DNA of 64,000 bases, from sequence record NC_019500.1. One strand, given 5' to 3'. Every line of letters starts with the position of its first letter. Positions within the stretch are counted from its first letter, which is position 1. This DNA comes from Escherichia phage Bp7. Shown here in pieces: positions 3,273 to 44,107 of the stretch. Both the position numbers and the translations under genes were made by a program. A model generated the notes under the pieces. The model saw only the letters and a program-made list of their open reading frames with translations. It did no database searches and had not been told where the DNA came from.

Positions 3273-4421
3273 ATGATTGAATTATATGATAACTTGATGG
3301 CCCTGGTTAAAAACTCGACTAAATCTAAGTTCTTCTTTAAAGACTTTCAGAGTGCGCTAGGAGTCAACTATCGCATCTTTAGTTATAACTATGCCTCGTA
3401 CAGTGATTGGTTGGAAGACGGCGCGCTAGAGGGCCGAGGCATTATGTTTGAAATGGACGAGAACGGTCCAGTACGTATTGCTGCTCGTCCTATGCAAAAG
3501 TTCTTTAACCTTGACGAAAACCCTCTGACCATCGGTCTAGATTTGTCACCAGAAAATATTGACCTCGTAATGGCTAAGGAAGATGGTTCTCTGATTTCTA
3601 CATTCATGGACCGACAGTATCTTTCTGTTAAATCTAAAGGCTCTATCCATTCATCAATGGTGCATGATTCTTTACGGTTCCTTCGTCTCCCTGAGAACGA
3701 GGCTTTTGCCGCACGTCTAGAAGAAATCACCAAAGCTGGGTATACCTGCAACCTTGAATATGTAGCACCTACCAACCGTATCGTTCTGGCTTACCAAGAA
3801 ACAAACCTCATCCTGTTGAACGTTCGTAATAATGAAACAGGTGAATATATTCCGTATGCTGAATTGTTTAAAGATGGTGCCCTGCGTAAGCATTTGGTTG
3901 AAAGCTATGACCTCGCTGAAGGTGATTTCGTAGAAAACATCCGTAAACAAGAAGGTATTGAAGGTTTCATCTTTGTACTGAAAGATGGTACGTTCTTTAA
4001 ACTCAAAACCGCCTGGTACAGTGCACTGCACCATACCAAAGATTCCATTAACAATAACGAACGTTTGTTTGAAGTTGTAGTGGCTGGTGGAACTGATGAC
4101 CTTCGTGGATTGTTCAGTACAGATTCGTTTGCTATCGAGAAAATCGATGCCTTTGAACGTATCCATTTAGATTACTTAGAACAATCATTAGCCTTGTTAG
4201 AAGCAGCGTACTCCCAACTTAAGGGTCGCGACCGTAAGGACTACGCCGTTACTGGTCAACTAATCCTTAAGGACTTTCCAGGGTTGTTCTCTATTCTTAT
4301 GCAGGCGTACGTAGGCGGCATTAATTATGATACGGTCATGGACCAGATTAACTCTGTGTTCTTGAAAAACCATAAAGCCCAAATCCCTGAAAAATATTTG
4401 AAAGAAATTGTGGTAGAGTAG
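3273..4421 (+). CDS. rnlA: RNA ligase 1 (gene 63, tail fiber attachment catalyst)
   Basis: 382 aa; YRIFSYNYASYSDWL...ALEGRGIMFEMD...KEDGSL motifs matching T4 RnlA. Confidence 0.85.
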   Translation: MIELYDNLMALVKNSTKSKFFFKDFQSALGVNYRIFSYNYASYSDWLEDGALEGRGIMFEMDENGPVRIAARPMQKFFNLDENPLTIGLDLSPENIDLVMAKEDGSLISTFMDRQYLSVKSKGSIHSSMVHDSLRFLRLPENEAFAARLEEITKAGYTCNLEYVAPTNRIVLAYQETNLILLNVRNNETGEYIPYAELFKDGALRKHLVESYDLAEGDFVENIRKQEGIEGFIFVLKDGTFFKLKTAWYSALHHTKDSINNNERLFEVVVAGGTDDLRGLFSTDSFAIEKIDAFERIHLDYLEQSLALLEAAYSQLKGRDRKDYAVTGQLILKDFPGLFSILMQAYVGGINYDTVMDQINSVFLKNHKAQIPEKYLKEIVVE

Positions 4422-10641: not shown

Positions 10642-10803
10642 ATGGCTAAGAAAGAAGTTAAAGTAGTTGACGGTACCTCTAAACGCGCTGGTTACAAGCG
10701 TGCGTCCAACAAGCGTATCAATCAGGTAGTTGATAAGCTTCAAGCTCGTGCTCGTGCAGTATTGCGTGCAGATGCTGCTTGCTTTGGTAAGCCTCAGGCA
10801 TAA
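10642..10803 (+). CDS. Small basic hypothetical protein (53 aa)
   Basis: MAKKEVKVVDGTSKRAGYKRASNKRINQVVDKLQARARAVLRADAACFGKPQA; RBS aagag 8 nt upstream; followed by strong terminator. Confidence 0.45.
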   Translation: MAKKEVKVVDGTSKRAGYKRASNKRINQVVDKLQARARAVLRADAACFGKPQA

Positions 10804-10808
10804 GTTAT

Positions 10809-10837
10809 GGGACTCTTCGGAGTCCCATTTTTGTTTC
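10809..10837 (+). terminator. Rho-independent terminator GGGACTCTTCGGAGTCCC + T-tract
   Basis: Perfect hairpin plus T run. Confidence 0.6.
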
Positions 10838-11289: not shown

Positions 11290-11333
11290 AGACCTGTACC
11301 AAATAATACGAAAACAAACTGGAGAATAAAATG
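11287..11333 (+). repeat. 47-nt promoter/leader cassette, copy 2
   Basis: 46/47 identity with 10881..10927. Confidence 0.9.
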
Positions 11334-11696
11334 AACTACATCAACTTCGAACGTAAATATGTTTCTAACGGTATCGCTGGTTCTTCTGAAGTTATTTGCC
11401 TGTGGAAACACAACAACGGCGCGGTGTGCGAAATCGAACAGTGCATGACTCCTAACTACGTTTATATGCGCTTTGAAAATGGTATTACGGTTTCAATCAC
11501 AATGGAAGGTTCTACTTTTAAAATCGCTTTAGATGATGATTTCCGTCAACGTGATTTAGGTACCCATCCTTGCTGGAACGGTTCTAATCGTAAGCTTCTG
11601 GTTAAAACCTGGATTCGTCACATCCTGAGCAACCGAGCTAAACCTGAACACCTGGAAGCAATCTTTGATGTAGTTCTGAATGAATTCGATATCTAA
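11331..11696 (+). CDS. Hypothetical protein
   Basis: 121 aa ORF preceded by same leader. Confidence 0.55.
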   Translation: MNYINFERKYVSNGIAGSSEVICLWKHNNGAVCEIEQCMTPNYVYMRFENGITVSITMEGSTFKIALDDDFRQRDLGTHPCWNGSNRKLLVKTWIRHILSNRAKPEHLEAIFDVVLNEFDI

Positions 11697-11739
11697 TCTT
11701 AAAAATGGAGGCTTCGGCCTCCTTTGAGGAAAATATTAT

Positions 11740-12025
11740 GTTTATGACCACTTATTTTGATACTCGTAAAAATTTCTGTGAAGTTGTTTTCTCTAAAGCA
11801 GGTAAAGATGTTCCTGCCGACAAACAACCTACTCGTGAATCTATTAAGGCTTATGCCGATGTTGTATGCCCGGTAGAATTCCGTACTGTTAATGGTCGTG
11901 ATACCCTAGCAATCACTAAGCTAAACCATGATATCAATATCGACCCAAGTGTCGCCCGTGAAGTCAATACCTCTGACATCTATGGTGGTAATGTTAAATC
12001 ACATGGCTTTCAGATGAGGTTCTAA
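11740..12025 (+). CDS. Hypothetical protein
   Basis: ORF with RBS gagga upstream of ATG 11740. Confidence 0.45.
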
Positions 12026-12219
12026 TGCAACTATTCTTATCACAAACTGTTCAGCTAAAAGGTGTAGGTATTCCTGGAATGATTTCAAAGGTTCTACCTG
12101 CTTTTAAATTAGGTAATGTTACTATTAAAGAAGCCTACACCGTCCTATGGGTCGATGGAACTGAAGATGTTCGCATGGGTGGTGAACTGTCTGTAATCAA
12201 ATGTTTAAAGCGAGGATAA
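12025..12219 (+). CDS. Hypothetical protein
   Basis: 64 aa ORF, start overlaps upstream stop. Confidence 0.4.
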   Translation: MQLFLSQTVQLKGVGIPGMISKVLPAFKLGNVTIKEAYTVLWVDGTEDVRMGGELSVIKCLKRG

Positions 12220-12220
12220 T

Positions 12221-12436
12221 ATGGTTAAGAAATTGATTCAGAAATTATTAGGTACGGAAATGGTCGAAGTGACTTATCGTGTGACTGATGTTTCTCCTCA
12301 TACGGCAGACCATTTAGAACCTTATATCATGACAATTAAAATGGCCAAATATGACGGTGGTTTATCCATTGAAGACCGTCTGCCAGGTTACGGGCATTGG
12401 GCTGATGTCGAAATTATAAGTGTCAAAGATGTCTGA
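12221..12436 (+). CDS. Hypothetical protein
   Basis: 71 aa ORF. Confidence 0.4.
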   Translation: MVKKLIQKLLGTEMVEVTYRVTDVSPHTADHLEPYIMTIKMAKYDGGLSIEDRLPGYGHWADVEIISVKDV

Positions 12437-12887
12437 GTTAGAAATCAGAAGTAATTTTCCGTGGCCATCGTGTGCATTAAGTAACTTTGCTAAATGGCCT
12501 TTCGTTATGGATGGTATCCAATTTGGAGGGCTCGAAGGATTCCTCCAAGGGTGTAAGGTGAGAAATCATGAACAACAAAAACGTATATTTGGGATGTCCG
12601 GTCTGGCCGCACAACAAACTGGAAGAGCTTATGCAAGAGCTGCGGACCGTGGGACGCTTTTCTGGCTTGGAATTCCCTTTTCAAGATACTCTACATCATG
12701 GAAAGAGTTGTATACAAATGCATATTTTGAAGCAGCGCTCCAAAACAAAGGATTCCGCGACGCATTACAAGCTACAAAGGGCAAAGTTTTAAAGCATTCG
12801 ATGGCGAGCCACCTTACAGAATGTGATACAATACTAACTGAAAAAGAGTTTATCGACATCCTAAACAAATTGAGAGATTTATTATGA
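12420..12887 (+). CDS. NADAR/YbiA-like (DUF1768) domain protein, tentative
   Basis: 155 aa; pattern ...LSNF...F..DG..F...EGFLQ..K... resembles YbiA/NADAR family; assignment from motif memory only. Confidence 0.45.
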   Translation: MSKMSELEIRSNFPWPSCALSNFAKWPFVMDGIQFGGLEGFLQGCKVRNHEQQKRIFGMSGLAAQQTGRAYARAADRGTLFWLGIPFSRYSTSWKELYTNAYFEAALQNKGFRDALQATKGKVLKHSMASHLTECDTILTEKEFIDILNKLRDLL

Positions 12888-13522
12888 AACCAGTTATCTT
12901 AACAGATATCGATGGAGTATGTTTAAGTTGGCAGTCCGGCTTGCCTTATTTCGCACAGAAATATAATTTGCCTTTAGAACATATTTTGAATATGATTCAG
13001 GACGAACGTTTCTTATCTCCTGGTGAGCTGTTTAATTGTGATAATGAATTAGGCGCTCGTTTAATCGAGAAGTACAATCAGTCAGATTTTATTCGTTATC
13101 TGTCTCCTTACATGGACGCATTAAAACATATCAACAAGCTCAAAAAAGACTTCGATTTTGTAGCCGTGACTGCGCTAGGCGACTCAATTGATGCACTGCT
13201 GAATAGACAATTCAATTTGAATGCTTTGTTCCCTGGCGCATTCAAGGAGATTCTGATGTGTGGTCATTCAGAATCAAAAGAAGACCTCTTCATAAGAGCT
13301 AAAAATACGTACGGTAAACGTATTAAGTTTTATGTTGATGATTTGGCTCACCACTGTGATGCTGCATCTAATGTTCTCATGGATATCCAAGTTTATTGGT
13401 TAGCTCGTGGTGAACGTGACTTTAAACCTAATTTAGCCGTAAAGGTTAATTCATGGGACGATATCGCAGCAATCGAATCCCTTCGTAATAATGCCGCAGT
13501 TGAATGGATTGCTCGAGGTTAA
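12884..13522 (+). CDS. HAD-superfamily phosphatase-like protein, tentative
   Basis: 212 aa; N-terminal ILTDIDGV (HAD motif I DxDG) and downstream acidic YVDD; tentative. Confidence 0.45.
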   Translation: MKPVILTDIDGVCLSWQSGLPYFAQKYNLPLEHILNMIQDERFLSPGELFNCDNELGARLIEKYNQSDFIRYLSPYMDALKHINKLKKDFDFVAVTALGDSIDALLNRQFNLNALFPGAFKEILMCGHSESKEDLFIRAKNTYGKRIKFYVDDLAHHCDAASNVLMDIQVYWLARGERDFKPNLAVKVNSWDDIAAIESLRNNAAVEWIARG

Positions 13523-13523
13523 T

Positions 13524-13802
13524 ATGTTTGTAGTTCATACAATTTCAGACTATGGTCCTACCACTACAATGGATTATGGTCATGTAAACCAGTTTATTCG
13601 TCATGTGAATCATGATTACTCATTTGATGTAAATCCGGCTAAAGACCATCCTGTTTGGCGCGAATGCGTCGAACAGGGATTCATTTATGTCCACTTTATG
13701 TCCAAGTTCAAATCTGATGGGCGAATGAGATTTGTGTTCTCTTATCATAAGCGATTAGACTTGCTTTTGGCTGATGTGGCTTATAATAGAATCCATGACT
13801 AA
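13524..13802 (+). CDS. Hypothetical protein
   Basis: ORF from internal ATG following HAD-like gene stop. Confidence 0.4.
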   Translation: MFVVHTISDYGPTTTMDYGHVNQFIRHVNHDYSFDVNPAKDHPVWRECVEQGFIYVHFMSKFKSDGRMRFVFSYHKRLDLLLADVAYNRIHD

Positions 13803-13812
13803 TGAGGTGATT

Positions 13813-15336
13813 ATGATTTTAGATATTTTAAACGAAATTGCTGCTATTGATTCTACTAAAGCTAAAGAAGCCATTATTGCTCGTGAAAAGGACAATGAGC
13901 TTCTGAAACGTGTTTATCGTATGGCTTATACCCGTCGTCTGAACTACGGTATTAAAAAGTGGCCAGAACCTGGATTTACATCTCAATCCTTTGGTATGAT
14001 TACTCTTGAAGACCTTCTTGATTTCGCTGAATTCACATTAGCCACACGTAAGATTACGGGTAATGCGGCTATTGAAGAACTGGCTCAAATCATTGCTGAT
14101 GCTAAGGCCCCGGATGCCGAGGTATTACGTCGTGTAATGATGCGCGACCTTGAATGTGGTGCATCGATTTCTATTGCTAACAAGGTTTGGAAAGGTTTAA
14201 TCCCTGAACAACCGCAGATGTTGGCGAGTTCTTATGATGAAGCTTTGATTAAGAAAAATATTAAATGGCCAGCGTTTGCTCAATTAAAAGCTGATGGCGC
14301 TCGTTGTTTTGCTGAAGTTCGTAACGATGGTGTGACATTCCTTACTCGTGGTGGTAATGAATATCAAGGGCTTAATCTTTTGGCGGCTGAATTAATGGCC
14401 ATGACCGAAGAAGCTCGCCAGCGCCATCCTAATGGTGTTATGATTGACGGTGAATTAGTTTACCATACTCCTAAGGTAGAACCTAAAGCATCTAATGATT
14501 TGTTTAGTATGTTTGATGAGGAACTTCCTGAATTAAGTAAGGCTAAGGAATTCCAAACTGTCGCCGATCGTTCTACGTCAAATGGATTGGCTAATAAGGC
14601 TCTTCAAGGAACTATTACTCCAGCCGAAGCAGCCGGTATGGTATTACAGGCGTGGGATTATGTCCCATTGGATGTCGTATATTCCGAAGGTAAAATTAAA
14701 GGCGATAAGTATGATGTACGCTTTACAGCCTTAGAACTTATGGTTGCTCATAATGTCGTATTGCATGGTGCAACGCGTGTTGAAGCTATCGAAAACCAGT
14801 GGGTTAATAATCTTGAAGAAGCTAAAGTTGTTTATAAGAAATATGTCGACCAGGGCCTGGAAGGCATTATCCTTAAGAACATGGACTCCTACTGGGAAAA
14901 CCGCCGTTCTAAGAATCTTATCAAGTTCAAAGAAGTAATCGATATTGCTTTAGAAGTGGTAGGTTATTATGAACACTCGAAGGACCCTAACAAACTTGGT
15001 GGTGTCGAGTTGGTATCGCGTTGTCGTCGAATTACAAGTGACTGCGGTTCAGGCTTTAAAGATACCACCCATAAGAAAGATAAATCAGGTAAAAAGGTAT
15101 TAATTCCATTGGAAGACCGTCCTGATTTAGACCGTGAACTTCTTATGAAACAAGCTCGTGAAGGTAAGTTGATTGGACGTATTGCTGACTGTGAATGTAA
15201 TGGTTGGGTTCATTCTAAAGGACGTACTGATACTGTAGGTATTTTCCTTCCAATCATTAAAGGTTGGCGTTTCGATAAAACAGAAGCTGATACATTTGAA
15301 GATGTATTCGGTGATTGGTCTCAAACTGGTCTATAA
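13813..15336 (+). CDS. 30: ATP-dependent DNA ligase gp30
   Basis: MILDILNEIAAIDSTKAKEAIIAREKDNELLKRVY...; adenylation KADGAR motif; C-terminus FEDVFGDW; matches T4 ligase. Confidence 0.9.
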   Translation: MILDILNEIAAIDSTKAKEAIIAREKDNELLKRVYRMAYTRRLNYGIKKWPEPGFTSQSFGMITLEDLLDFAEFTLATRKITGNAAIEELAQIIADAKAPDAEVLRRVMMRDLECGASISIANKVWKGLIPEQPQMLASSYDEALIKKNIKWPAFAQLKADGARCFAEVRNDGVTFLTRGGNEYQGLNLLAAELMAMTEEARQRHPNGVMIDGELVYHTPKVEPKASNDLFSMFDEELPELSKAKEFQTVADRSTSNGLANKALQGTITPAEAAGMVLQAWDYVPLDVVYSEGKIKGDKYDVRFTALELMVAHNVVLHGATRVEAIENQWVNNLEEAKVVYKKYVDQGLEGIILKNMDSYWENRRSKNLIKFKEVIDIALEVVGYYEHSKDPNKLGGVELVSRCRRITSDCGSGFKDTTHKKDKSGKKVLIPLEDRPDLDRELLMKQAREGKLIGRIADCECNGWVHSKGRTDTVGIFLPIIKGWRFDKTEADTFEDVFGDWSQTGL

Positions 15337-15337
15337 T

Positions 15338-15520
15338 ATGAAAGCTTATTTAGAAACCGTGGTTATTGGATATAAAGAAGGTGGGGATGTCTCCACTGCA
15401 GTGTCCCAAATTGTCCTTGAATTTGAAAATGAAATCGCGTTCGCTGATTTTAAAGATAATTTCGACCGCTATGAAAAGGGTCCTAAATTTGAAGTGTACC
15501 GTACGCTGTTAGTACTTTAA
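15338..15520 (+). CDS. Hypothetical small protein
   Basis: 60 aa ORF after ligase. Confidence 0.35.
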   Translation: MKAYLETVVIGYKEGGDVSTAVSQIVLEFENEIAFADFKDNFDRYEKGPKFEVYRTLLVL

Positions 15521-15574: not shown

Positions 15575-17659
15575 ATGACCGAACAATTAAATGAAGTGTT
15601 TGAGTCCGAAGGCACACTGCCTACAGTAAACTTGAACCCAAAACTTAAAGTACCCCAGATTTGGAAGATTGGTGACGCAGAATCCCAATTAGTGGCGCGT
15701 ATGGTATCCTACGCTTCTGAAGGTGATGCTATTAAACAGGTTAAGATGGGTGATAAATATGCCCACGTTATCCTTATGAGCCTTTCAGCTAAAGGTTCGC
15801 CTGCCGAACTTAAAGGTGGCCTAGGCCCTACTCCCGTAGATGCGATTAATACTATTTTTGATGTGGTTTATGACCAAGTTAAAAAGCTTCGTATGGATGC
15901 CGTGATGTTCCGTTTCCCTACTAAGAAAATGAAAGGTCAAGGCCCTATCGTTCAACGGATTATCCAACGTTTGGTAGCACAGAAAACAGGTGGACGTTTT
16001 AAAGTAGTTCCGGCTATGTACCAATTTACCGGTAAACATACTTATATCCTAGTAGTTCGTAAACAGGCTGATATCGAAGATATCAAAGGTATGCCAGGAA
16101 TTAATGCCGAATTATACACTAAGGTAGATTCTGATGTCGGTGAAGTTTATATTTCTAAAAAAGAAGGCGTGCAGGTTACTAAAGAAACTGCTATTGCCGG
16201 CAGTATTGCTAAAGTTGAAGAACGTCGCACTGATAAAATGGTTATAACCAAGACTAAGATTTCTCGTCGTGCCATTGCAGCAAGTCAATCGTTAGAATCT
16301 TATCGTAATGAAAGTGAACTGTTTAAGAAATATGAAGCAAATGCCGTAGATTTTAATAAACCTGCAACAGCTCCATTAATCCCTGAGGCCCAGGAAATGG
16401 TTACTAATAACAATTCTCCCGCGGCTAAAAATAAGGTTGCTAATATAGTAGCTGAAGGTACTGCTGAAGAATTGCATTATGATTATAAAATGTTTCCTCT
16501 TCACGGTATAGGTGAAATCCAAGAGAAAATTAAAGATAAAATTCTTGCGGCCATCAAAAACGAACCTTTGACATCTGTTAAAGCTCTAGAAAAATATGCC
16601 TCTGCTATTAATACCGTTTTCGAAGAATACAAAGGTGAATGGCTGGCCCGGCATAACAAAACTCGTAAAGGCCAACCTGACGACCTCTGGAATGAATTGA
16701 CCGATGCGAAGTGGAAAGCCGCCAAGACCAAGTTCATTAAAAAACGTGTATATAGTTTTGCCGGTGTAGGTGGCGGTATTATGGTCGATATTACTATTGC
16801 TCGTGAGGGCTCTAAATATACCCCATCACAAAAGCGCGGCATCAGAGAATATTGTGGCTCAGGATATACAGACATAAATAATCTTCTTTTAGGACGCTAT
16901 AACCCTCAGAACTATGAGGTTATGGGCGAAAAAGATATCGAATCTGCAGTTAATAATTTGGATTCTGCTTTTGAAAATGGCGACCGTATACCAGAAGGCA
17001 TCACAGTTTATCGTGCACAGAGTATGACTGCTCCTATATACGAAGCACTAGTTAAAAATAAAGTGTTCTATTTCAGAAATTTTGTATCCACTTCATTGAC
17101 TCCTATCATTTTTGGACGTTTTGGTGTTACACACGCCGGTATCGGTCTTTTAGAACCGGAAGTTCGCGATGAATTGACAGTCGATAAAAATGAAGAAGGA
17201 ATAACTATTAATCCTAATGAAATAAGAGCATATAAAGAAAATCCTGATTATGTTAAAGTTCAAATAGGATGGGCTATTGATGGGGCTCATAAAGTTAATG
17301 TCGTATATCCAGGAAATCTCGGAATAGAAACTGAAGCCGAAGTTATTCTACCGCGTGGATTAATGGTCAAAGTTAATAAAATAACAGATGCTTCTAATAA
17401 TGATGGAACAACATCTAGTAATACAAAACTCATCCAAGCTGAAGTTATGACAACAGATGAGCTTCAAGAATCTGTGGTATATGATGGTGACGTACTAATG
17501 GAAACCGGCGAGTTGGTCGTATATAAAGATGACTTCGATACTTCCGAAAGCCCTGTATCTTTTGATTCATTTGTTAAATCTACACGGTTTGATGTATTGC
17601 CTCTTTTGGCTTCATGCATAGACCTCTATGACATCCCAGAAAAATTCATCCAAGGGTAA
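15575..17659 (+). CDS. alt: ADP-ribosyltransferase Alt (copy 1)
   Basis: 694 aa; C-terminal ART domain (RGIREYCGSGYTDINNLL..., YRAQ..., FVSTS); size and position match T4 Alt. Confidence 0.85.
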   Translation: MTEQLNEVFESEGTLPTVNLNPKLKVPQIWKIGDAESQLVARMVSYASEGDAIKQVKMGDKYAHVILMSLSAKGSPAELKGGLGPTPVDAINTIFDVVYDQVKKLRMDAVMFRFPTKKMKGQGPIVQRIIQRLVAQKTGGRFKVVPAMYQFTGKHTYILVVRKQADIEDIKGMPGINAELYTKVDSDVGEVYISKKEGVQVTKETAIAGSIAKVEERRTDKMVITKTKISRRAIAASQSLESYRNESELFKKYEANAVDFNKPATAPLIPEAQEMVTNNNSPAAKNKVANIVAEGTAEELHYDYKMFPLHGIGEIQEKIKDKILAAIKNEPLTSVKALEKYASAINTVFEEYKGEWLARHNKTRKGQPDDLWNELTDAKWKAAKTKFIKKRVYSFAGVGGGIMVDITIAREGSKYTPSQKRGIREYCGSGYTDINNLLLGRYNPQNYEVMGEKDIESAVNNLDSAFENGDRIPEGITVYRAQSMTAPIYEALVKNKVFYFRNFVSTSLTPIIFGRFGVTHAGIGLLEPEVRDELTVDKNEEGITINPNEIRAYKENPDYVKVQIGWAIDGAHKVNVVYPGNLGIETEAEVILPRGLMVKVNKITDASNNDGTTSSNTKLIQAEVMTTDELQESVVYDGDVLMETGELVVYKDDFDTSESPVSFDSFVKSTRFDVLPLLASCIDLYDIPEKFIQG

Positions 17660-19714
17660 ATGATGGAAAATTTAAACGAAGTTTTTGATAGCGATTCCGC
17701 TAAAAACTATCCAGTAATAAATCTTAAACCAGGTTCCGGTATCCCACAGATTTTCTCTATTAAAGCACCGGGTAATGATAACCTGGTTGCTCGTATGGTA
17801 TCTTATGCGTCTCAAGGAGACGCTATTAAAATGGTTAAGCCGGGCGACAAATATGTCCACGTTATTCTAATGAGTTTGTCAAGCAAGGGTGCTCCGGCTG
17901 AACTCAAAGGTGGTCTTGGTTCTGACCCACTCGGTACGCTGAATACCATTTTTGATACTGTATACGAACAAGTAAACAAACTTAAAATGGATGCGGTTTT
18001 ATTCCGTTTCCCTACCAAGAAAATGAAAGGTAAGGGCCCTACTGTTCAGCGTGTATTAGCTCGTTTGGCTATGGCTCGTACTGGTGGTAAGTTTAAAGTT
18101 GTTGATGCCATGTACCAATTCACTGGAAAACATACCTATGTTCTTTTAGTACGTCGTGGCACTAATATTGAAGATATCAAGGGTATGCCTGAAATTGATG
18201 CCGAACTTTATACTAAGGTTGAGTCCAAAGTTGGCGAAGTTTATGTTTCTAAGGAAACCGGCCAGTCCGTAAGTAAGGCCGAAGCTGTCTCGGCAAGTAT
18301 AGCTAAGGTTGAAGAGAAACGTACTGATAAGGCCGTCATTACCAAGACTAAGATTTCTCGTCGTGCTATTGCTATGTCGCAATCCTTAGAATCGTCACGA
18401 TTTGAAACTCCTATGTTTAAGAAATTTGATTCTAATGCTGCTGAATTGAATAAACCGGCTACGGCTCCTTTAATGTCAGAAGCAAATGAAATAAAGGTTA
18501 TTTCTAATTCTTTCTTGGCTTTAGAAAATACCATTAGTGCTAATACTGGTGGTATGTCGTTTAAAGACAACCTTCTTATTCCAGAAGATAAAATGGAAGA
18601 AATTAATACCGACATAAAAATGAGAGCTTTTGAGAAATTACATGGATTAAATGTGACTTCAGTAAAAGCCCTAGAAAATTATGCTTCAGTGGTTGATGAC
18701 GTCATCGAAGAATATAAAGGTCCTTGGCTTCAAAAGCTAATGGCTCAACATTCACACCTAGGTTATCACGAAGCAGTCGAGTTGGCTGAAAATTCTTGGA
18801 ATGCTATAAAGACCAAAATTATTCAACGTGAGCTGCGTGTTTACGCTCTTACCGCCGGTTGGCAATTGCATTCTATTATAGAAAATAAAGACGCGTCTCG
18901 TTATACTCCTGCCCAGAAACGTGGTATTCGTGAATATGTTGGCTCCGGTTACGAAGATATGAATAATGTTCTTTTAGGTCTCCATGACCCGAATGTAAGA
19001 AGCAGTATTCTGACTAATGAAGACATAGAAAAAGCTATCAATAACTTAGATTCTGCTTTTGAAAATGGCGAACGTCTACCACCAGGTATTACTCTTTATC
19101 GTTCCCAACGAATGATTCCTGATATTTACTTGGCTATGATTAGCAATAAAGTATTCTATTTCAGAAACTTTGTTTCAACTGCGATATATCCGAATATTTT
19201 TGGTACATGGATGACTGATTCTGGTGTTGGTCTTTTGCCTGACGAAAAACGTCGTGATGTTGCATTAGACAAATCGGATGAAGGTTTAGTATATTCGAAT
19301 AAAGATACTTTAGTAGGTATTGGTTGGGCCTTTACCGGTACAGATAAGGTAAATGTCGTTTTACCTGGTGGAGACTTGGCTCCTTCTAACGAAATGGAAG
19401 TAATTCTTCCTAGGGGTTTGATGGTCAAAATCAATAAAATTACAGATGCTTCATACAATAACGGAACTACTCGTTCTAACAATAAGTTCGTTCAAGCCGA
19501 AGTAATGACTGCAGACGAACTTAATGAAGCCGTGGTGTACGATGGTGATGCTCTGATGGAAACAGGCGAACTAGTTGTCTATAAAGAGGGTAATGAGCTT
19601 TCTTTTGATTCTTTTGTTTCTAATGAGAAGAAAAAGAAATCAGACAGAGGTCTTGGCTTGTTAGCTTCTTGTATAGATATCGACGCTCTCCAGTATAAAT
19701 TTGTACAAGGGTAG
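17660..19714 (+). CDS. ADP-ribosyltransferase Alt paralog (copy 2)
   Basis: 684 aa; collinear similarity to copy 1 along full length (e.g. RMVSYAS.GDAIK, RGIREYVGSGYEDMNNVLLG). Confidence 0.85.
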   Translation: MMENLNEVFDSDSAKNYPVINLKPGSGIPQIFSIKAPGNDNLVARMVSYASQGDAIKMVKPGDKYVHVILMSLSSKGAPAELKGGLGSDPLGTLNTIFDTVYEQVNKLKMDAVLFRFPTKKMKGKGPTVQRVLARLAMARTGGKFKVVDAMYQFTGKHTYVLLVRRGTNIEDIKGMPEIDAELYTKVESKVGEVYVSKETGQSVSKAEAVSASIAKVEEKRTDKAVITKTKISRRAIAMSQSLESSRFETPMFKKFDSNAAELNKPATAPLMSEANEIKVISNSFLALENTISANTGGMSFKDNLLIPEDKMEEINTDIKMRAFEKLHGLNVTSVKALENYASVVDDVIEEYKGPWLQKLMAQHSHLGYHEAVELAENSWNAIKTKIIQRELRVYALTAGWQLHSIIENKDASRYTPAQKRGIREYVGSGYEDMNNVLLGLHDPNVRSSILTNEDIEKAINNLDSAFENGERLPPGITLYRSQRMIPDIYLAMISNKVFYFRNFVSTAIYPNIFGTWMTDSGVGLLPDEKRRDVALDKSDEGLVYSNKDTLVGIGWAFTGTDKVNVVLPGGDLAPSNEMEVILPRGLMVKINKITDASYNNGTTRSNNKFVQAEVMTADELNEAVVYDGDALMETGELVVYKEGNELSFDSFVSNEKKKKSDRGLGLLASCIDIDALQYKFVQG

Positions 19715-43254: not shown

Positions 43255-43926
43255 TCATGATAGTTTTCCATTTGGTTGTTTTGATTCAATCATATTTATA
43301 AGAGTTTTTAAGCTCATCCCACAGCCATCTGATTTGGAAAGATTTTCTTCCCACGGAATAATTTGCAAGTTACAAATATGGCCTATATGTTCTGCGGGTA
43401 TTTTATTATCATAACCAAATTTCTTAGATATTATATGGTCTAATTGATAAGCACCTTTGACTCCGCACTTGCCTATTTTAGTAAAATTCTTCATTTTACT
43501 TATTTCATTTCTATATTTATACTGATGACGCTTGACATCCATACAATATTTATGATATTTTTTCTTATCAATCCAGTGTTCTTTAGATTTGAGACCTTTA
43601 CCTGTTCTATTTTTGGAAATTTTAGGCCCTTTGGTTTTACGGATTTTTATGCCTTCATCAGAATTCCAATATTCTTTTCTTGTTTCTGAATAGACTTCCC
43701 AGCGATGTTCTTTACAGAACTTAGAATTTGTTTCATTAAGACGTCCTTTTGTTACAGTATAATAAGTGCCACATTTATCACATTTACATGTAACAGCAAT
43801 TTTTCCAGGACAATCTTCTAATTTTATTAAATGAGAGCTTCCACTTTTAACTTGATATCCGAGATTTTTAAAAGCAGAAACATTGCGATTCGTTATAGGT
43901 ATTTCAAATAGAGTATTAGTAATCAT
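43255..43926 (-). CDS. HNH homing endonuclease, free-standing between genes 18 and 19
   Basis: 223 aa; QLDHIISKKFGYDNKIPAEHIGHICNLQIIPWEENLSK HNH motif; Cys-rich N-terminus. Confidence 0.7.
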   Translation of the reverse strand: MITNTLFEIPITNRNVSAFKNLGYQVKSGSSHLIKLEDCPGKIAVTCKCDKCGTYYTVTKGRLNETNSKFCKEHRWEVYSETRKEYWNSDEGIKIRKTKGPKISKNRTGKGLKSKEHWIDKKKYHKYCMDVKRHQYKYRNEISKMKNFTKIGKCGVKGAYQLDHIISKKFGYDNKIPAEHIGHICNLQIIPWEENLSKSDGCGMSLKTLINMIESKQPNGKLS

Positions 43927-43931
43927 ACTTA

Positions 43932-43939
43932 TATTTATA
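43932..43939 (-). promoter_or_regulatory. Late promoter TATAAATA (minus) upstream of HNH ORF/gene 19
   Basis: Exact octamer. Confidence 0.45.
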
Positions 43940-43948
43940 TACCAGAAA

Positions 43949-43977
43949 GTCGCAGGATTGAGCCTGCGACGTTTTTA
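43949..43977. terminator. Hairpin GTCGCAGG...CCTGCGAC + T-tract downstream of gene 18
   Basis: 8-bp perfect stem. Confidence 0.4.
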
Positions 43978-44107
43978 GTTATACAGTTGATAAATCATAT
44001 TCCTAAAGAATAATCAACCCCAGGCGCAATTCTGCGTGATGTACGCTGTAACCAAACTCATGGTATAATGGTTTTAGGTTCTTTATATTACAGCCTGGGA
44101 TAATAGA

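Follow-up and report, generated by a model that had tools for sequence, protein, structure and literature searches.

Two overlapping genes in the early region of a T4-like coliphage, one resembling the NADAR family and the other the HAD phosphatases, lie upstream of DNA ligase and of two genes for ADP-ribosyltransferases, and their arrangement raises the question of whether they work together as a functional unit or are neighbours through shared ancestry of the gene order. The window (the whole 64,000-nucleotide stretch of DNA that was analysed) shows 98% identity to Dhakavirus IME281. Both ORFs prove to be real genes, orthologous to T4 30.3 (adfN) and 30.2. The gene order is the standard T-even one, 30.4–30.3–30.2–30.1–30 (ligase)–alt (Table 1). 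A preliminary description, made from the sequence, had assigned the two genes to the NADAR and HAD families and had joined them with the ligase and alt genes in a possible ADP-ribosylation/de-ADP-ribosylation module. The observation is confirmed and the family calls were right, the finding being largely known already; the ligase and the two ADP-ribosyltransferase genes were likewise found downstream (PF01068, and PF03496 twice). The module is another matter. Most probably, AdfN and an NT5C-like HAD phosphatase are the products of two independent early genes, and their adjacency to each other and to alt reflects an inherited order and not a functional cassette.

Table 1. Positions of adfN, gene 30.2 and their neighbours in the window.
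Feature	Position	Strand	Evidence
adfN, orthologue of T4 gene 30.3; 152-aa NADAR-superfamily protein, phage gp30.3 subfamily	12429..12887	+	PF08010; T4 identity; predicted fold
Catalytic helix segment E36...K43 (GAA 12534-12536, AAG 12555-12557)	12534..12557	+	Family and YbiA alignments
His123 codon	12795..12797	+	Invariant in family alignment; directly after strand 120-122 of model
C-terminal helix, residues 138-152, intact	12840..12884	+	DNA alignment; helix 138-151 in model
ATGA start/stop overlap of adfN and gene 30.2	12884..12887	+	Identical 4-nt overlap in T4
Orthologue of gene 30.2; NT5C-like HAD-superfamily phosphatase of 212 aa, C1 helical cap	12884..13522	+	phrog_420; motifs; model
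HAD motif I, DIDGV, residues 8-12 (D8-I-D10-G-V)	12905..12919	+	End of strand 4-7 in model
HAD motif II, Thr96	13169..13171	+	Near-invariant; end of strand 91-96 in model
HAD motif III, Lys132	13277..13279	+	Invariant in close and remote alignments; N-terminus of helix 133-146
HAD motif IV, Asp152-Asp153	13337..13342	+	End of strand 147-152 in model
Gene 30.1 orthologue (DUF3045)	13524..13802	+	PF11243, E=5.9e-16, match from residue 12 of longer ORF
ATP-dependent DNA ligase (gene 30)	13813..15336	+	PF01068, E=4.2e-23; phrog_114
Two tandem alt paralogues, Alt-type ADP-ribosyltransferases	15575-17659, 17660-19714	+	PF03496, E=4.7e-35 and 5.4e-26; phrog_802

The first gene had been described as an ORF running from 12420 to 12887. 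The frame and strand hold, and its start has been moved: the ATG at 12429 is probably the correct one, judging from the comparison with T4, and the in-frame GTG at 12420 is a less likely alternative, set aside on the grounds that the 152-aa product of the ATG is colinear with T4 gp30.3. Starting at this ATG, the gene overlaps the stop of the upstream gene 30.4 by 8 nt (ATGTCTGA), as many as in T4. At its other end, the ATGA overlap with gene 30.2 would permit translational coupling, here and in T4. A consensus scan of the window returned 14 promoter-like sites against 16.7 in the shuffled expectation, with no excess; the promoter and terminator scan was uninformative, so operon boundaries could not be drawn from it.

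The adfN product is confirmed as a NADAR-superfamily protein of the phage gp30.3 (AdfN) subfamily by the agreement of the subfamily profile, the conserved catalytic residues and the predicted fold. It matches the Pfam model PF08010 (Phage_30_3, Bacteriophage protein GP30.3) with 215 bits (E=3.9e-64; cutoff 36), and is 86% identical to T4 gp30.3 over the full length of 152 residues, without gaps. The 21 substitutions that separate the two proteins leave the known catalytic positions unaffected. The general NADAR model PF08719, through which the preliminary description had expected the family to be recognised, is not reached by the window protein in the Pfam search and is reached by only 6 of 40 gp30.3 family members.

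All 40 sequences of the family alignment share Glu36 and Lys43; both residues are found in T4 as E36 and K43 (the equivalent catalytic pair being E43/K50 in Pn), and their segment aligns with the SEHYFQAQK segment of YbiA. The residue of the last strand separates the NADAR subfamilies, with His in phage gp30.3 proteins, Glu in YbiA-type proteins and Asp in the DarT1-linked (BC4488) NADARs (PMC11125620, PMC11543638); the window protein has His123 at this place.

The AF2 model of the protein (pLDDT 94.9) agrees with this assignment. In a Foldseek search against the PDB, three solved NADARs, YbiA (2b3w), G. lovleyi NADAR (8bat) and PnNADAR (8bau), were matched with a probability of 1.00 and all other entries with 0.06 or less. 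The best structural match was YbiA (E=3.2e-05, TM 0.68), which was also the sole match, a marginal one (E=1.2), in a direct PDB sequence search. The same three structural neighbours are reported for T4 AdfN (PMC11825919), with which the window gene shares its position, the overlaps with 30.4 and 30.2, the E36/K43/H123 residues, the C-terminal helix and the predicted fold. E. coli YbiA differs in its last-strand Glu and in its role, that of an N-glycosidase of riboflavin intermediates linked to swarming. The DarG1 proteins (BC4488 subfamily; G. lovleyi 8bat, E. coli C7; PMC11543638) share the fold (Foldseek probability 1.00) and the Glu/Lys pair, and the hydrolysis of guanine-ADPr is also performed by the T4 orthologue. 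However, their third catalytic residue is Asp instead of His, and they are associated with DarT1, whereas the window gene is an orphan.

The biological role of this protein family has been established in T4, where gp30.3 was named AdfN, the anti-DarT factor NADAR (Johannesman et al., Nat Commun 2025; PMC11825919). The deletion of adfN makes T4 and T2 sensitive to DarTG1, and AdfN expression rescues RB69 from this system (PMC11825919). The purified protein, alone in vitro, strips ADP-ribose from DarT1-modified DNA, full activity is lost in the E36A and K43A mutants, and truncation of the C-terminal helix lowers it (PMC11825919). T4 gp30.3 is specific for guanine-ADPr and inactive on thymidine-ADPr (PMC11125620), and hydrolysis of guanine-ADP-ribose in DNA has been seen with the NADARs tested (PMC11543638, PMC11125620). 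Furthermore, a T4 transposon screen found adfN to be conditionally essential on DarTG1 (bioRxiv 10.1101/2025.11.20.689424). The suggestion that this locus might counter a host DarT-like defence has thus been demonstrated experimentally for the T4 orthologue (PMC11825919; PMC11125620).

By analogy with the 86%-identical T4 protein, window adfN would encode a guanine-ADP-ribose DNA glycohydrolase and would protect the phage against DarTG1. When a DarTG1-carrying E. coli host is infected, DarT1 ADP-ribosylates guanines of the phage DNA and blocks its replication. AdfN would then cut the N-glycosidic guanine–ADP-ribose bond, freeing the ADP-ribose and restoring the base, with Glu36, Lys43 and the subfamily-specific His123 as the residues expected to take part in hydrolysis. 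The window protein itself has the fold, these residues and an intact C-terminal helix. This last point separates it from RB69, where a three-way DNA alignment reveals an extra T at column 411, present neither in the window nor in T4, and this 1-nt insertion leads to the loss of the C-terminal helix. No darT lies beside adfN, its neighbours being 30.4 and 30.2, and neither its product nor that of 30.2 is matched by the PADLOC models, so adfN is an antitoxin-like orphan, in line with the published account of AdfN.

In an alternative built on the alt genes downstream, the NADAR protein would reverse or tune the phage's own Alt/Mod ADP-ribosylation, writer and eraser forming a self-contained module. 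The genes do share one early block, with the two alt genes about 2.7 kb away. However, Alt modifies protein arginine. The NADARs that have been tested, T4 gp30.3 included, act on guanine-ADPr in DNA and not on thymidine-ADPr (PMC11125620, PMC11543638). Moreover, adfN is essential only in the presence of DarTG1 and dispensable on hosts devoid of it, and numerous loci have a gp30.3-type NADAR but lack an alt gene in the vicinity. A link between adfN and alt of the kind first suggested is therefore extremely improbable.

The second gene, 30.2, encodes a protein that matches phrog_420 with E=1.5e-70. The preliminary description had recognised a HAD-type phosphatase in it from the DIDGV motif, and this is borne out by the fold and by all four catalytic motifs, although none of the Pfam HAD gathering scores is reached by the window protein (the NT5C model, PF06941, scores 13.4 bits against 24.8). 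An NCBIfam scan was equally without a match, for this protein and for T4 gp30.2. In the family alignments, D8, D10, G11, K132, D152 and D153 are invariant and T96 near-invariant; the conservation of D8 and D10 extends to both close and remote relatives, whereas D152 and D153 are invariant in the close family and D153 near-invariant in the remote one. R108 and N111 are invariant residues specific to the gp30.2 family. The structural model (pLDDT 94.4) has a Rossmannoid HAD core, the motifs in their canonical places and, covering the active site, a C1 cap made of four helices. The lowest-rmsd Foldseek matches are 5'(3')-deoxyribonucleotidases.

The sequence relationship with these enzymes is visible through intermediate relatives and profiles. 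The 82 remote relatives, all of which reach the gp30.2 profile with E<=1e-17, match NT5C more often than any other Pfam family (38 of them, best E=4.2e-10), which indicates a nucleotidase-like phosphatase. The extended family profile retrieves the deoxyribonucleotidase-like 3bwv over its full length (4e-07), followed by nucleotide phosphatases, and a direct PDB search gives 2jao marginally (E=0.25, or 0.042 with the close-family profile). This supports a sister relationship to NT5C, as distinct from membership or a given substrate. The solved NT5C members (cdN, 2jao/2i7d; S. epidermidis 3bwv) share the HAD core, the C1 cap and a DxDGV motif I with the window protein at 15-18% identity. T4 gp30.2 is far closer: it is 72% identical overall, has a highly conserved HAD core (residues 1-195) and also lies between 30.3 and 30.1. 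It differs in length (278 aa versus 212), with an aromatic/proline-rich C-terminal tail of ~66 aa that is absent from the window protein.

The second Asp of motif I is characteristic of phosphotransferases rather than dehalogenases. The gene 30.2 product would accordingly be a Mg2+-dependent HAD phosphomonoesterase, with Asp8 as the predicted nucleophile, Asp10 as the acid/base, Thr96 and Lys132 binding the phosphate and Asp152/Asp153 the Mg2+. A small substrate is suggested by the C1 cap with its four helices, and a nucleoside monophosphate, such as the NT5C branch uses, is the likeliest candidate. The fold and motifs are seen in the protein itself; this substrate is predicted, as is a part played, beside ligase, in DNA or nucleotide metabolism. 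In the literature searched, no experimental function was found for gp30.2, gene 30.2 or the Tevenvirinae HAD nucleotidase homologues.

Gene order was surveyed at 80 IMG/VR loci and in bacterial and metagenomic contigs, a gp30.2-type HAD being sought within 5 kb. None was found at about 50 gp30.3-type NADAR loci outside the T-even order, nor was there any HAD among the 39 representatives of NADAR neighbours. Outside the T-even-like phages, NADAR contexts are hyper-variable, with 112 neighbour proteins falling into 79 clusters. By contrast, the gp30.2-type HAD lies directly upstream of ligase at each locus in which it turned up, in all the Straboviridae lineages examined, and stays there even when the NADAR gene is displaced or absent. 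Jiaodavirus, Aeromonas and KVP40-like phages have the HAD gene beside ligase and the NADAR gene in another place. The adjacency of NADAR and HAD is kept in Tevenvirinae and in Acinetobacter phage KARL-1. As the HAD thus tracks ligase and not NADAR, and no gp30.2-type HAD was found beside the NADAR at the surveyed loci outside the T-even order, the single module of the preliminary description is rejected as the main explanation.

These data also bear on whether AdfN and gp30.2 constitute a two-enzyme counter-defence pair, in which the HAD would be the T-even-specific factor needed by AdfN or would process the ADP-ribose or nucleotide by-product. Full function of T4 AdfN is confined to T-even infection: the protein works with RB69, which encodes 30.2, and fails in uninfected cells, where it does not replace DarG1, and with T5 or Bas25 (PMC11825919, PMC11125620). 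The ATGA overlap here and in T4, the adjacency retained in Tevenvirinae and in KARL-1, and a single independent pairing at another genome position in the KVP40-like Vibrio phage R11Z, where a relocated gp30.3-type NADAR is directly followed by a different, canonical NT5C gene, would fit such a partnership; the R11Z pairing is retained as a lead. However, AdfN alone is sufficient to remove ADP-ribose from DNA in vitro (PMC11825919), and the transposon screen on DarTG1 names adfN, whereas its text says nothing about 30.2 (bioRxiv 10.1101/2025.11.20.689424). Together with the NADAR loci devoid of a HAD and the lineages in which the HAD remains with ligase, this makes the partnership very unlikely.

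The constant position beside ligase invites a different proposal for gp30.2, that of a nucleic-acid end-healing 3'-phosphatase readying nicks for the adjacent DNA ligase, instead of a small-molecule nucleotidase. In phT4A the HAD gene even overlaps the ligase gene by 20 nt, and one remote relative weakly matches the PNKP phosphatase-domain model. Nevertheless, a HAD cap favours small substrates and PNKP-type phosphatases are capless, whereas the gp30.2 model carries four cap helices above its active site; by sequence, gp30.2 is nearest to NT5C and to nucleotide phosphatases; and PseT already provides T4-like phages with a 3'-phosphatase. An end-healing function is therefore unlikely. A combined proposal, in which 30.3, 30.2 and 30 form a DNA-damage-reversal cassette where AdfN de-ADP-ribosylates guanine, gp30.2 supplies the T-even-specific activity that AdfN would require in vivo or clears a by-product derived from a nucleotide or from ADP-ribose, and ligase seals the DNA, is most unlikely; in its favour are the HAD–ligase linkage conserved throughout Straboviridae and a further, independent pairing of NADAR and NT5C in KVP40-like Vibrio phages.

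Neither gene makes a point that would surprise a specialist. The gp30.2 protein is a near-core Straboviridae phosphatase, encoded 5' of DNA ligase wherever it occurs among the loci examined. AdfN offers a clear example of an orphan, antitoxin-like enzyme with which a lytic phage undoes a host modification of its DNA, and the intact adfN allele predicts that the window phage, unlike RB69, resists DarTG1. Recognising the gene is also of practical use because it lacks an annotation in the closest public genome, the RefSeq record of IME281; the idea that it might be missing there was discarded, the ORF being intact and merely unannotated.

The region under study belongs to a T4-like coliphage. Bases 11300-15400 match 611 phage records and share 98.1% identity with Enterobacteria phage vB_EcoM_IME281, a Dhakavirus of the Tevenvirinae (Straboviridae). 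The two ORFs that the preliminary description called NADAR-like and HAD-phosphatase-like were borne out, and they lie within the classical T-even early-gene order, which runs on the + strand from 11331 through 30.7, 30.6, 30.5, 30.4, the NADAR ORF (adfN, the orthologue of T4 gene 30.3), the HAD ORF (the orthologue of T4 gene 30.2), 30.1, ligase, an Alt.1-like ORF and two alt genes. A strong hairpin directly after a 30.9-like ORF ending at 10803 likely marks a transcript boundary upstream of the 30.8-30.2 block. Both alt paralogues are full-length (694 and 684 aa) and carry ADPrib_exo_Tox domains, whereas the T4 region compared has a single alt at the corresponding position.

Features of the early-gene region, in window coordinates
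Feature	Position	Strand	Remarks
Terminator-like hairpin	10807-10828	+	9-bp stem, 5 G-C pairs, then T run
adfN (NADAR ORF)	12429-12887	+	most likely start
30.3' counterpart	12568-12792	+	74-codon ATG ORF inside adfN, other frame
gp30.2 (HAD ORF)	12884-13522	+	
30.1 orthologue	13524-13802	+	DUF3045
DNA ligase	13813-15336	+	
Small ORF between ligase and alt (Alt.1 position)	15296-15520	+	Pfam PF24647 'Phage blade protein', E=9e-29
First tandem alt gene	15575-17659	+	
Second tandem alt gene	17660-19714	+	

The adfN product matches Pfam PF08010 (Bacteriophage protein GP30.3; E=3.9e-64) and aligns gap-free with T4 gp30.3 at 86% identity, while E36, K43 and H123 are invariant in its alignment with 39 diverse relatives. 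Its AlphaFold2 model (pLDDT 94.9) has exactly three significant PDB matches, namely E. coli YbiA (2b3w), the Geobacter lovleyi DarT1-associated NADAR (8bat) and a Phytophthora NADAR with bound ADP-ribose (8bau), each with a probability of 1.00, all others reaching 0.06 at most. YbiA was also the sole match in a PDB sequence search, aligned over the E...K catalytic segment. The general NADAR model PF08719 was also reached by 6 of the 40 family members. Together, these data confirm the NADAR assignment, which had been proposed from motifs.

The suggestion that this gene might counter DarT-like defence was correct and had already been published for the T4 orthologue, named AdfN by Johannesman et al. 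(PMC11825919). T4 gp30.3 hydrolyses guanine-ADP-ribose in vitro and leaves thymidine-ADP-ribose intact (PMC11125620). Without adfN, T4 and T2 form no plaques on cells carrying DarTG1, a toxin-antitoxin defence whose DarT1 ADP-ribosylates guanines in phage DNA (PMC11825919), and a T4 transposon screen independently identified adfN as conditionally essential on DarTG1 (10.1101/2025.11.20.689424). RB69 is naturally DarTG1-sensitive owing to a T insertion at position 411 that removes the last AdfN helix; it is rescued by AdfN expression, more weakly with E36A or K43A (PMC11825919). A DNA comparison found the extra T in RB69 alone, and the window allele, which like T4 lacks it, is therefore of the intact type. 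At the last-strand position where phage NADARs carry His (H123), YbiA-type proteins have Glu and DarT1-linked NADARs Asp (PMC11125620, PMC11543638).

The adfN start is most likely ATG 12429, which matches T4 in its 8-nt overlap with 30.4 (ATGTCTGA) and yields a 152-aa product colinear with T4 gp30.3; the same features disfavour GTG 12420. An internal ORF in another frame corresponds to the annotated T4 gene 30.3'. It is still open in the window, and its 61% identity to T4, versus 86% for the main frame, indicates that it evolves faster than adfN. In the IME281 RefSeq (NC_055740.1), no CDS is annotated over adfN (about 43523-43990), where an intact ORF almost identical to that of the window is present, and the 'gp30.x' notes on adjoining CDSs are displaced by one gene. 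Public adfN calls are shortened or frameshifted in several relatives (P0124-P0126, P0133, P0135, P0136, P0139). P0136 is broken at its C-terminal end, and the vB_Eco_NR1 product begins in the 30.3' frame before joining that of adfN. Such calls may be natural null alleles like that of RB69, or sequencing or annotation errors.

The HAD assignment of gp30.2 also proved correct. D8, D10, G11, K132, D152 and D153 are invariant in 39 relatives and T96 nearly so, constituting HAD motifs I-IV, and the AF2 model (pLDDT 94.4) places every motif canonically, with a four-helix cap inserted behind motif I. Profile support came only from relatives: no Pfam HAD model reached threshold for gp30.2 itself (NT5C, 13.4 bits vs 24.8), which matches phrog_420 (unknown function; E=1.5e-70), but among 82 remote relatives NT5C matched 38 (best 4.2e-10), Hydrolase 15 and HAD_2 13. 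A profile search of 1.84 billion representatives yielded 1268 relatives. The profile including remote ones matched 3bwv, a deoxyribonucleotidase-like protein of S. epidermidis, over its full length (E=4e-07), with pyrimidine and XMP nucleotidases next. On this evidence gp30.2 is judged to be an intact HAD-type phosphatase, and its DxD motif I speaks against a dehalogenase. It is closest to the NT5C nucleotidase branch, as a probable sister rather than an established member, and a nucleotidase role is putative; some homologues bear the GenBank/JGI names "putative phosphatase", "5' nucleotidase" or "5'(3')-deoxyribonucleotidase", and a literature search on gp30.2 or a T-even HAD nucleotidase found no functional paper. 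Window gp30.2 is 72% identical to that of T4 and has 212 rather than 278 aa, the ~66 absent C-terminal residues forming a Pro/Tyr/Asn-rich tail (window 13470-13522 vs T4 locus 3475-3700). Database homologues occur in short (~200-220 aa) and long (~260-310 aa) forms.

The observation thus stands, as do both family assignments and the proposed role against DarT, but a NADAR-HAD module is not supported. In the phage database both genes occur in near-identical genome sets (1508 and 1436 records, with equal genus distribution), a pattern expected of any two near-core genes of the Straboviridae. Of 80 IMG/VR loci carrying a gp30.3-type NADAR, those of T-even-like phages keep the order NADAR, HAD, (30.1), ligase, alt; in other T4-like lineages two to three genes separate NADAR and HAD, and at about 50 loci no gp30.2-type HAD lies within 5 kb. 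The immediate neighbours at these HAD-less loci (112 proteins, 79 clusters) included no HAD among 39 representatives, and NADARs of a Rhizobium phage, a Bacteroides genome and jumbo-phage-like metagenomic contigs likewise lack a HAD neighbour. Ligase, by contrast, directly follows the gp30.2-type HAD wherever it was found (T-evens, Acinetobacter KARL-1, Jiaodavirus, Slopekvirus, Aeromonas avDM6 and KVP40-like phi-Grn1), including loci without a nearby NADAR. The NADAR-HAD adjacency in the window is thus a gene order specific to the lineage, and the constant companion of the HAD gene is ligase. Across the Straboviridae subgroups examined, HAD-ligase linkage is more conserved than NADAR-HAD linkage; in Slopekvirus phT4A the two genes overlap by 20 nt. 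One gene is orthologous to that of a characterised protein, and the other encodes a conserved uncharacterised phosphatase.

The proposed ADP-ribosylation/de-ADP-ribosylation link to the alt genes is equally unsupported. Alt modifies protein arginine. The NADARs tested have guanine-ADP-ribose in DNA as their substrate (PMC11543638, PMC11125620), and adfN is needed solely where DarTG1 is present (PMC11825919; 10.1101/2025.11.20.689424). A 2022 survey had already described T4-like NADARs as early genes that are expressed together with the ARTs (PMC9503650).

It is very improbable that a nucleotidase assists the NADAR, and the text of the DarTG1 screen, which names adfN alone, speaks against it (10.1101/2025.11.20.689424). 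Such help would fit the ATGA overlap of the adfN stop with the HAD start, common to the window and T4, and the full effectiveness of T4 AdfN in T-even infections only (PMC11825919). It would also fit Vibrio phage R11Z (vB_ValM_R11Z, KVP40-like; locus L011, 4007-4958), where the NADAR has moved upstream of the gp46/47 exonuclease genes and again directly precedes, with a 23-nt overlap, an NT5C 5'(3')-deoxyribonucleotidase gene (PF06941, 47 bits) that is canonical and different from gp30.2; in its sister phage phi-Grn1 the gp30.2-type HAD remains at ligase. In jumbo-phage-like metagenomic contigs (L006-L009, 17-308 kb), Thg1-like (tRNA-His guanylyltransferase family) and NUDIX genes lie a few genes from gp30.3-type NADARs, surroundings that hint at an RNA-repair or nucleotide-processing neighbourhood.
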